DNA from: Gammaproteobacteria bacterium
GTDB lineage: Bacteria; Pseudomonadota; Gammaproteobacteria; Eutrophobiales; Eutrophobiaceae
Length of the DNA: 64,000 nt
NCBI GenBank assembly: GCA_965116495.1
Contig: OZ220696.1
Span: 2,976,001-3,040,000, forward strand
Reading direction: 5' to 3'
Shown here: positions 61,360-62,037 of the stretch, piece by piece
How positions within the stretch are numbered: position 1 is the first letter of the stretch
Layout: each line of letters begins with the position of its first letter
Made by a program: the position numbers and the translations under genes
Notes under the pieces: generated by a model
The model's database searches: none
Seen by the model: only the letters and a program-made list of their open reading frames with translations
What the model was told of the DNA's origin: nothing

Positions 61360-61404
61360 GATCGAATAATATATTATGGGACTTATATACGATAGTGCCG
61401 CACG

Positions 61405-61905
61405 TTAATGCAGCCCAGCCGTATCCGTTTCACGCTTCCCAGGCCGCCTTACATCAGCGCCACCTCCACGTGCAGCAGCCCCATTCCCGAAGGCCAGGAT
61501 ATTTAACGCGGCATTTACGTCCGCATTGTCCCGATGACCGCAGGACAGGCCGGCGGCTATCGAGAAGGACGGAACATGATCGTAATGCGCCTTGAGCTTC
61601 GGTAGGCCGCCTTTGCCTGCATAGAATCTCTTGTATGCGGTCTCTATCGGCTTTAATGACAGCTTGATGATATTAGCCGAATAGTCCTGTAGCCATTCAG
61701 CATAGTGATTGCGCCATACCGTGTACAGCTTGCCGATACTGTACCAGTGGGGATTACACTCGCCATAGAAGCGGTAATCATCCCGCAGCTTGCCGACAAA
61801 GTGATTCCACGTGTAACGGCATGCTTCGGCCAGGCCACGCAGTTGGCGCGCCTTTTCCTTCGTATGGGGATGCAGGCGGTAGCGGATTGTTCGATGTACA
61901 GACAT
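61405..61905 (-). pseudogene. tnpB: TnpB (RNA-guided endonuclease family), in-frame internally deleted
   Basis: N-terminus RYRLHP...CRYTWNHF..WL..YS..AYKRF....G.PKLK, joined to the C-terminal SCGHRDNADVNAALNILA; RuvC-I/II are absent; 166 aa. Confidence 0.8.
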
Positions 61906-61911
61906 GAGATA

Positions 61912-61920
61912 ATTATAGCA
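61912..61920 (-). promoter_or_regulatory. Extended -10 promoter for a leaderless tnpB transcript
   Basis: Minus strand reads TGCTATAAT-N6-ATG with no SD sequence. Confidence 0.55.
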
Positions 61921-62037
61921 TTTTCAAGAGGTTATTTCACTTCGGTACTATCGTATATAATTCCCTATATTATCCTGGTCAAAGTTTCCCTTTAACTCAT
62001 TGATCGAAACTGCGTATGATTGGACGGTGGTGATGAC

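Follow-up and report, generated by a model that had tools for sequence, protein, structure and literature searches.

A Broken tnpB Element with IS1595-Type Ends as a Member of a Large tnpB-Only Family

Introduction

The TnpBs of IS200/IS605, IS1341, and IS607 elements have a D-E-D triad, an omega-RNA lying over the gene end, a TAM on the 5' side, and a 3' pseudoknot to the element tip, and restorative homing is their likely role, according to the sections of a 2026 review considered here (PMC13565253). In these features, of which the omega-RNA, the TAM, the pseudoknot, and the homing role are predicted in our case, the elements studied here are like them. In contrast, the IS200/IS605, IS1341, and IS607 elements have neither terminal inverted repeats (TIRs) nor target duplications (TSDs) and are moved by Y1 or serine transposases, as the same sections state (PMC13565253). 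Compared with all of these, the present elements also have a variable 8-bp TSD between the motif and the element, and the motif is only 1–2 nt long.

TnpBs are found in DDE transposons too. Altae-Tran et al. (2023, PMC10691335) reported six DDE-associated branches with inverted ends, DDE-1 to DDE-6, as well as solo TnpBs with the same ends that are mobilized in trans, so that DDE-linked and trans-mobilized solo TnpBs are already published in outline. In the parts of that paper considered here, IS1595 is named in an HMM list only, DDE-6 corresponds to IS630, and DDE-5 is described as catalytically rearranged, plasmid-enriched, and having a TA motif that stands 8 bp ahead of the end of the element. 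The 2026 review names ISL2, IS630, and IS1031 as the DDE families with TnpB, and its section 6.2 calls TnpB rare in prokaryotic DDE transposons and offers rigid target recognition as an explanation (PMC13565253). No paper naming an IS1595–TnpB pairing was found in the portions of the literature searched. Fanzors in eukaryotic DDE transposons are likewise TnpB-type nucleases in elements with TIRs and TSDs; in the account of the review, their TAM includes the 5' TSD and their scaffold contains the 3' TSD (PMC13565253), whereas here the motif stands outside the TSD, which is the predicted guide seed.

The elements studied here resemble the IS1595 family in their TIRs, their AT-rich 8-bp TSD, the NF033547/PF12762 transposase on sister elements, and the carriage of passenger genes. 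This family reportedly has non-autonomous passenger-carrying derivatives, from which the present elements differ in that tnpB is their sole cargo and that the TIR seems to serve as RNA scaffold too.

The insertion and its ends

The window, i.e., the whole stretch of 64,000 nucleotides that was analysed, holds a TIR-bounded unit of 588 bp with the same perfect, AT-rich octamer, TATATTAT, on both sides:

61378..61400, minus strand: IS1595-type TIR of 23 nt at the tnpB 3' end
61943..61965, minus strand: IS1595-type TIR of 23 nt at the tnpB 5' end
61370..61377, no strand: 8-bp TSD on the tnpB 3' side, predicted guide seed (first 8 nt, read on the minus strand)
61966..61973, no strand: 8-bp TSD on the tnpB 5' side

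The two TIR arms match at 21/23 positions (91% complementary). Re-measurement thus returned the unit length, repeats, and duplication given in the initial annotation, which had also proposed looking for the empty site in relatives. Such sites were found: both genomes aligned carry a single TATATTAT there, which proves the TSD, in 7 of 22 same-genus genomes the two flanks share exactly 8 bp where they meet, and one contig of run X6 passes over 596 bp, with 8 letters in common, as an empty allele would. Other inverted repeats of similar length occur nearby (I1, 26 nt, 85%), and it is these empty-site alignments with one TSD copy that lift the unit above chance. In addition, a filled allele without 61441–61603 is present in runs X6 and X7; the insertion is therefore polymorphic among related strains and decaying.

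The element lies 10 bp ahead of the ATG of a class II aldolase gene and has a cyclase-family gene on its other side. At 61358–61377, the first 12 nt of the predicted guide form a perfect A/T palindrome; the guide continues into the aldolase start codon, and read-through out of the element would run into the 5' end of the aldolase gene. Farther along the window, at 62896–63607, there is a two-gene unit resembling a hicB-hicA toxin-antitoxin pair, in which a 91-aa ORF is a weak HicA match (E = 7e-4, under the cut-off) and a 144-aa ORF has no family match.

The initial annotation had linked these ends to IS1595 and proposed testing whether IS1595 DDE transposases share the same TIR, which is the case in two genomes. 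TIRs matching at 22/23 positions bound a 3991-bp IS1595 element in the window's own genome (G000:207383–211373, L001:1884–5874), which has its own 8-bp TSD, TTTGCGTT, and carries a frameshifted IS1595 transposase. In G022, the same TIR (22/23) stands at both ends of a 5095-bp element whose transposase, of 315 aa, is intact. The transposases of both elements score over the NF033547 and PF12762 cut-offs, and three metagenomic 2.6-kb IS1595 elements share the TIR as well. The unit in the window fits IS1595 as a non-autonomous derivative by TIR sharing and by its 8-bp AT-rich TSD; it holds no DDE transposase gene of its own, as an autonomous IS1595 element would.

The 3991-bp element also encodes a SocA-type antitoxin and a DNA methyltransferase, and a further, unassigned ORF of 213 aa in it is a possible restriction endonuclease. 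Its frameshifted transposase has an 18-bp duplication near the end. An assembly error behind the frameshift was considered and rejected, as the same frameshift is present in contigs of 4/4 runs, which are possibly the genome's own source. An island of 16.4 kb (G000:1981410–1997776, L036:1911–18277) is bounded by IS1595-type TIRs and flanked by perfect copies of TAAAGTTT; it contains other IS remnants and genes of unknown function, and no IS1595 transposase was found within it. Moreover, in three genomes the window's TIR adjoins or surrounds genes for RTX/serralysin-like proteases (G000:1590314–1590336, L031:3512–5665, L032:2092–3417), the protease calls being read off ORF listings; this suggests that IS1595 elements with this TIR may move such proteases.

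The gutted tnpB of the window copy

The unit is filled by one ORF on the minus strand, which leaves no room for a transposase, just as had been noted. It runs from 61905 to 61405, its ATG lies 37 bp inside one TIR, and its stop is 4 bp before the other. The features of the gene are the following:

61405..61905, minus strand: internally deleted tnpB, 166 aa, identified by profile matches and alignment
61543..61548, minus strand: junction of a deletion of about 708 bp, with CTGT(T/C)C microhomology, from the alignment
61912..61940, minus strand: promoter-like GTGAAA-17-TATAAT, read from the sequence and the alignment

Compared with three full-length relatives of genome G008, the ORF is shorter by about 708 bp, in frame. 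It keeps the N-terminal HTH/REC part, the last zinc-finger cysteine, RuvC-III, and the tail, while the RuvC-I D and the RuvC-II E are absent from the alignment, so that the D-E-D triad is incomplete. What remains is 63–75% identical to full-length relatives and aligns to TnpB models solely at residues 8–114 and 121–136. The assignment of the ORF to TnpB, which the initial annotation had staked on HMM matches, holds for PF12323, where the ORF is over the cut-off, and for the relatives on NF040570 (199 and 181 bits for full-length ones, cut-off 100); the fragment itself stays under that cut-off with 44 bits (E = 1.4e-11). The idea that a DDE-transposon family had captured an RNA-guided nuclease is supported. 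This copy, judged by its sequence, is nuclease-dead: with RuvC-I/II deleted, it cannot cut.

The promoter-like -10 box is 6 nt ahead of the ATG and is kept in 3/3 full-length relatives aligned, and we infer a leaderless tnpB mRNA. A search of G000 returned no intact tnpB and no second tnpB. As the cognate transposase is frameshifted too, the tnpB system of this genome is a fossil.

A large tnpB-only family

The window element is a broken, internally deleted member of a large tnpB-only family with IS1595 ends. In G008, three full-length copies encoding 401–407 aa have the window's ends, and a scan of GTDB genomes confirmed at least 439 of 604 candidate stretches. The statistics on related loci that follow refer to the best 80 of these at least 439 confirmed stretches. 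They come from Gammaproteobacteria, Opitutales, and Caldilineaceae MAGs, many of them with sponge-symbiont names. Both GGGA(A/C)TTATATA-like ends are present in 62/80, the TSD is perfect in 31 and matches at 7/8 or better in 38, and 70/80 have an ORF of at least 370 aa. The triad is kept in 69 of those 70 when scored by alignment columns (45/70 by a stricter regex count). The TIR recurs, as the initial annotation had proposed to test, on many elements whose tnpB is of full length and, nearly always, keeps the triad. Three genomes contain 25, 37, and 27 family matches.

Among 400 genomes of the phylum searched at E 1e-55, G000 was the only one with a match; among 300 genomes of the class at 1e-35, there were four. 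Plasmids gave no match above 36% identity. The protein scan of JGI metagenomes returned no relative, and the TIR pattern returned 17 loci there with three complete IS1595 elements and 0/17 tnpB elements with TIR and TSD.

The family appears to move without a transposase of its own. A TIR and TSD filter over all loci fetched left 83 distinct tnpB elements, and none of the 83 contains an IS1595 transposase. No autonomous element with both genes was found in the best 80 tnpB loci, in 77 IS1595 loci, or among the 83 elements; in the 77 IS1595 loci, tnpB fragments lie only outside the ends. Of the 13 loci where only the right end was recognized, most are longer elements that enclose a decayed piece of tnpB or another IS. 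IS1595 transposases are present in 14/15 carrier genomes searched, and some of their TIRs match those of a tnpB clade (L121, L393). The lack of a transposase inside the elements together with its presence in the carrier genomes argues for mobilization in trans.

The family shares with the published DDE branches, as far as the available description of them goes, a TnpB between DDE-transposon inverted repeats, a 3' end near the element end, and solo copies; it differs in that no transposase-containing copy was found here. Unlike DDE-5 as described, it has a canonical D-E-D and lacks close plasmid matches. The TA motif of DDE-5 is found in one clade here (9/10), whereas the window's clade has G. 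On this partial description, the DDE-5 branch may be the present family.

The nearest relatives outside the family are ordinary IS605/IS609-type TnpBs (33–40%), as would be expected if an IS605/IS1341 element with its own ends were nested in an unrelated MITE. We consider such nesting scarcely credible, in agreement with the initial annotation, since the 37 bp from TIR to ATG contain no hairpin (z = +1.02) and leave no place for an IS605-type end, the stop lies just 4 bp from the other TIR, the TIR covaries with the scaffold, and tnpB stands between TIRs family-wide down to about 40% protein identity. Besides having TIR and TSD, the elements show no 5'-end hairpin of the IS200/IS605/IS1341 kind, and the full-length relatives reach 145 of 425 bits on IS200_TnpB and 83 of 350 bits on IS607_TnpB.

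Several loci show rearranged elements. In L061, L064, L065, and L102 (1.8–1.9 kb), a single TIR pair encloses an intact tnpB and, ahead of it, a decayed tnpB 5' piece, which looks as though one copy had replaced or entered another. L271, L275, L278, and L214 are deletion derivatives, the smallest of 140–198 bp. In L275 the predicted scaffold is complete, and this derivative might function as a MITE that supplies only the guide, with TnpB provided in trans.

The TIR in the predicted omega-RNA scaffold

The window copy, although deleted, retains the region where the family's scaffold is predicted:

61378..61495, minus strand: predicted omega-RNA scaffold, about 118 nt, overlapping the ORF end and the TIR
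61478..61494, minus strand: first scaffold hairpin, with the loop GGGAAT at 61483–61488

RNAalifold was applied to 42 of the 75 available 3' ends plus the window, with one to a few representatives of each clade. The fold contains a small hairpin as well as a longer stem, with two-sided changes, and the loop of the hairpin, GGGA(A/C/T/G)T, can pair with the six bases that end the element. The resulting pseudoknot is 94% paired over the 42 sequences, and its one variable pair, 88–207, accounts for 15 two-sided changes among sequences that, being kin, are not independent. The whole structure is 92% paired compared with 30–53% when slid, for a structure drawn by hand from the same alignment that was scored and with most pseudoknot columns barely varying. 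Loop and tip pair at 6/6 positions in 48, at 5/6 in 23 (including the window), and at 4/6 in 2 of the 73/83 elements with a locatable loop.

The rest of the repeat seems to take part as well. The inner 18 nt of the TIR differ between IS1595 partners, and the upstream arm differs along with them. When the inner hairpin was folded for the 60 distinct cases among the 83 elements, the own TIR paired better than the mean foreign TIR in 57/60, with 11 against 7 pairs on average. In the window, the TIR tip has 5/6 pairs with the scaffold loop and the inner 18 nt are predicted to form a final hairpin of 14 pairs; the last 146 nt of the window copy alone fold no better than shuffles (z = -1.25).

From this covariation, we infer that the TIR would be built into the omega-RNA, its tip forming a pseudoknot with the loop and its inner part closing the last hairpin, as the initial annotation had supposed in calling the TIR the 3' end of the scaffold. 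On this reading, the TIR tip would be the end of the scaffold and the TSD the beginning of the guide, in line with the initial annotation's guess that each insertion takes its guide from flanking DNA. In L052 compared with L051 and L043, close TnpBs have unlike inner TIRs while distant TnpBs share a TIR, which suggests partner switching, possibly with re-adaptation of the last hairpin.

The IS1595 elements seen here carry varied passengers, and tnpB might accordingly be one more neutral passenger of an IS1595 mobile cassette, from which no guide RNA is made. This reading seems very improbable to us: in the best 80 loci the tnpB stop is always within about 90 bp of a TIR, the triad is conserved, the scaffold covaries with the TIR, and the flank motif is one-sided.

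The flank motif and the proposed mechanism

The one-sided motif concerns position -9, the base that adjoins the TSD on its outer side at the tnpB 5' end, which in the window is:

61974..61974, minus strand: candidate TAM base G, directly 5' of the TSD, in line with the family motif

Outside two clades, this base is G in 66/68 elements (66/70 if L038 and L052, which have a TSD and A at -9 and are under the end-score threshold, are included). On the 3' side of the same elements it is G in 17/68. Control ends have G in 10/23 left ends of transposase-bearing IS1595 elements and in 20/60 pooled ends, with the control element L286 counted twice; against the IS1595 left ends, Fisher's p is 5e-8, a value overstated by kinship. 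The two remaining clades, assigned like the others by best match and a quick tree (midpoint-rooted, without outgroup, 70 of the best 80 rows), have other bases: TA in 9/10 of the Porisulfidus/Oxydemutatoraceae clade compared with 2/23 controls, and AT in 5/5 of the Arenicellales clade compared with 0/23. As the flank bases follow the TnpB clade and do so on one side only, the motif, G in most clades and TA or AT in two, is likely a TAM. The last TSD base is T in 24/83 tnpB elements compared with 15/23 transposase-bearing IS1595 controls.

We think it probable that the elements are inserted in trans and afterwards protected by their own nuclease. The IS1595 transposase would insert the tnpB cassette at an AT-rich 8-mer, and a leaderless mRNA, started at the promoter next to the left TIR, would give both TnpB and RNA. 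The RNA would pass through the right TIR into the TSD and the flank, with a scaffold ending at the TIR tip and a guide that has the TSD first. Excision would leave one TSD copy, so that the site would become TAM plus TSD plus flank, a full target that TnpB would cut again, and repair from the filled sister would restore the element. ISApl4, also of the IS1595 family, forms circles holding one TSD copy, according to the part of PMC12561309 considered here. The filled allele would be safe, because its left junction would have a TAM followed by no more than 8 nt of matching sequence and its right junction a full match with TCCC where the TAM would be. Insertions without a TAM would be unprotected and lost, giving the flank bias. 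A point against this reading is that a bias of 97% would need a very strong post-insertion filter and hence frequent excision.

The same motif would arise if each cognate IS1595 transposase preferred such targets itself, with TnpB having at most co-adapted its TAM, as in IS605, or ignoring the motif. The transposase may well supply part of it, given that IS1595 left ends are purine-biased at -9 (19/23; G 10, A 9), and A-biased at -11, and that five IS elements with the window copy's TIR have G at 6/10 ends. Moreover, L052 has a swapped TIR together with a TA flank, like the IS element L124 with a similar TIR. As the whole explanation, however, transposase preference appears unlikely to us: the AT clade (5/5) runs contrary to the purine bias, the TIR of the TA clade also occurs on the transposase element L127 with a TG flank and on the tnpB-free MITE L207 with GC (n = 2), and inner TIRs ending in TTGACA are common to G and TA clades.

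The motif could also be made at insertion, if TnpB or its RNA bound TAM sites and recruited the IS1595 transposase 1 nt downstream. It is near-absolute even among near-identical recent copies, and the clade motif is kept in 6/6 deleted copies (L004, L214, L238, L275, L278, L330), which is what such steering would produce; these copies may equally have decayed in place, like the window copy. CAST effectors are not known to have an intact nuclease triad, unlike these TnpBs, and with the triad intact in the family and no adaptor gene present, we regard steering as improbable, and retain re-cutting of the excised site as the probable reading.

Conclusions

The window copy itself is dead, and its worth is as a pointer to the family and as a dated case of decay. 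What looks new here, on the evidence of the alignments, is the clade-specific motif of one or two bases and the coupling between TIR and scaffold. We would go further only tentatively, and with real doubt, in proposing a multi-phylum sponge-bacterial TnpB clade rebuilt on IS1595 ends and outside the published DDE branches, which would have a one-G TAM (TA or AT in subclades), the TSD as seed, a TIR with a dual DNA and RNA role, and a scaffold that re-adapts with its partner.

If this were true, these would be nucleases of 400 aa with an almost unrestricted target range, and they would allow a direct test of why cut-and-paste transposons retain TnpB. A TAM of a single base would be relevant to compact genome editors. 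The family is abundant, and it suggests how a variable 8-bp TSD could be accommodated, namely by a TAM of one or two bases outside the TSD and the TSD itself as seed.
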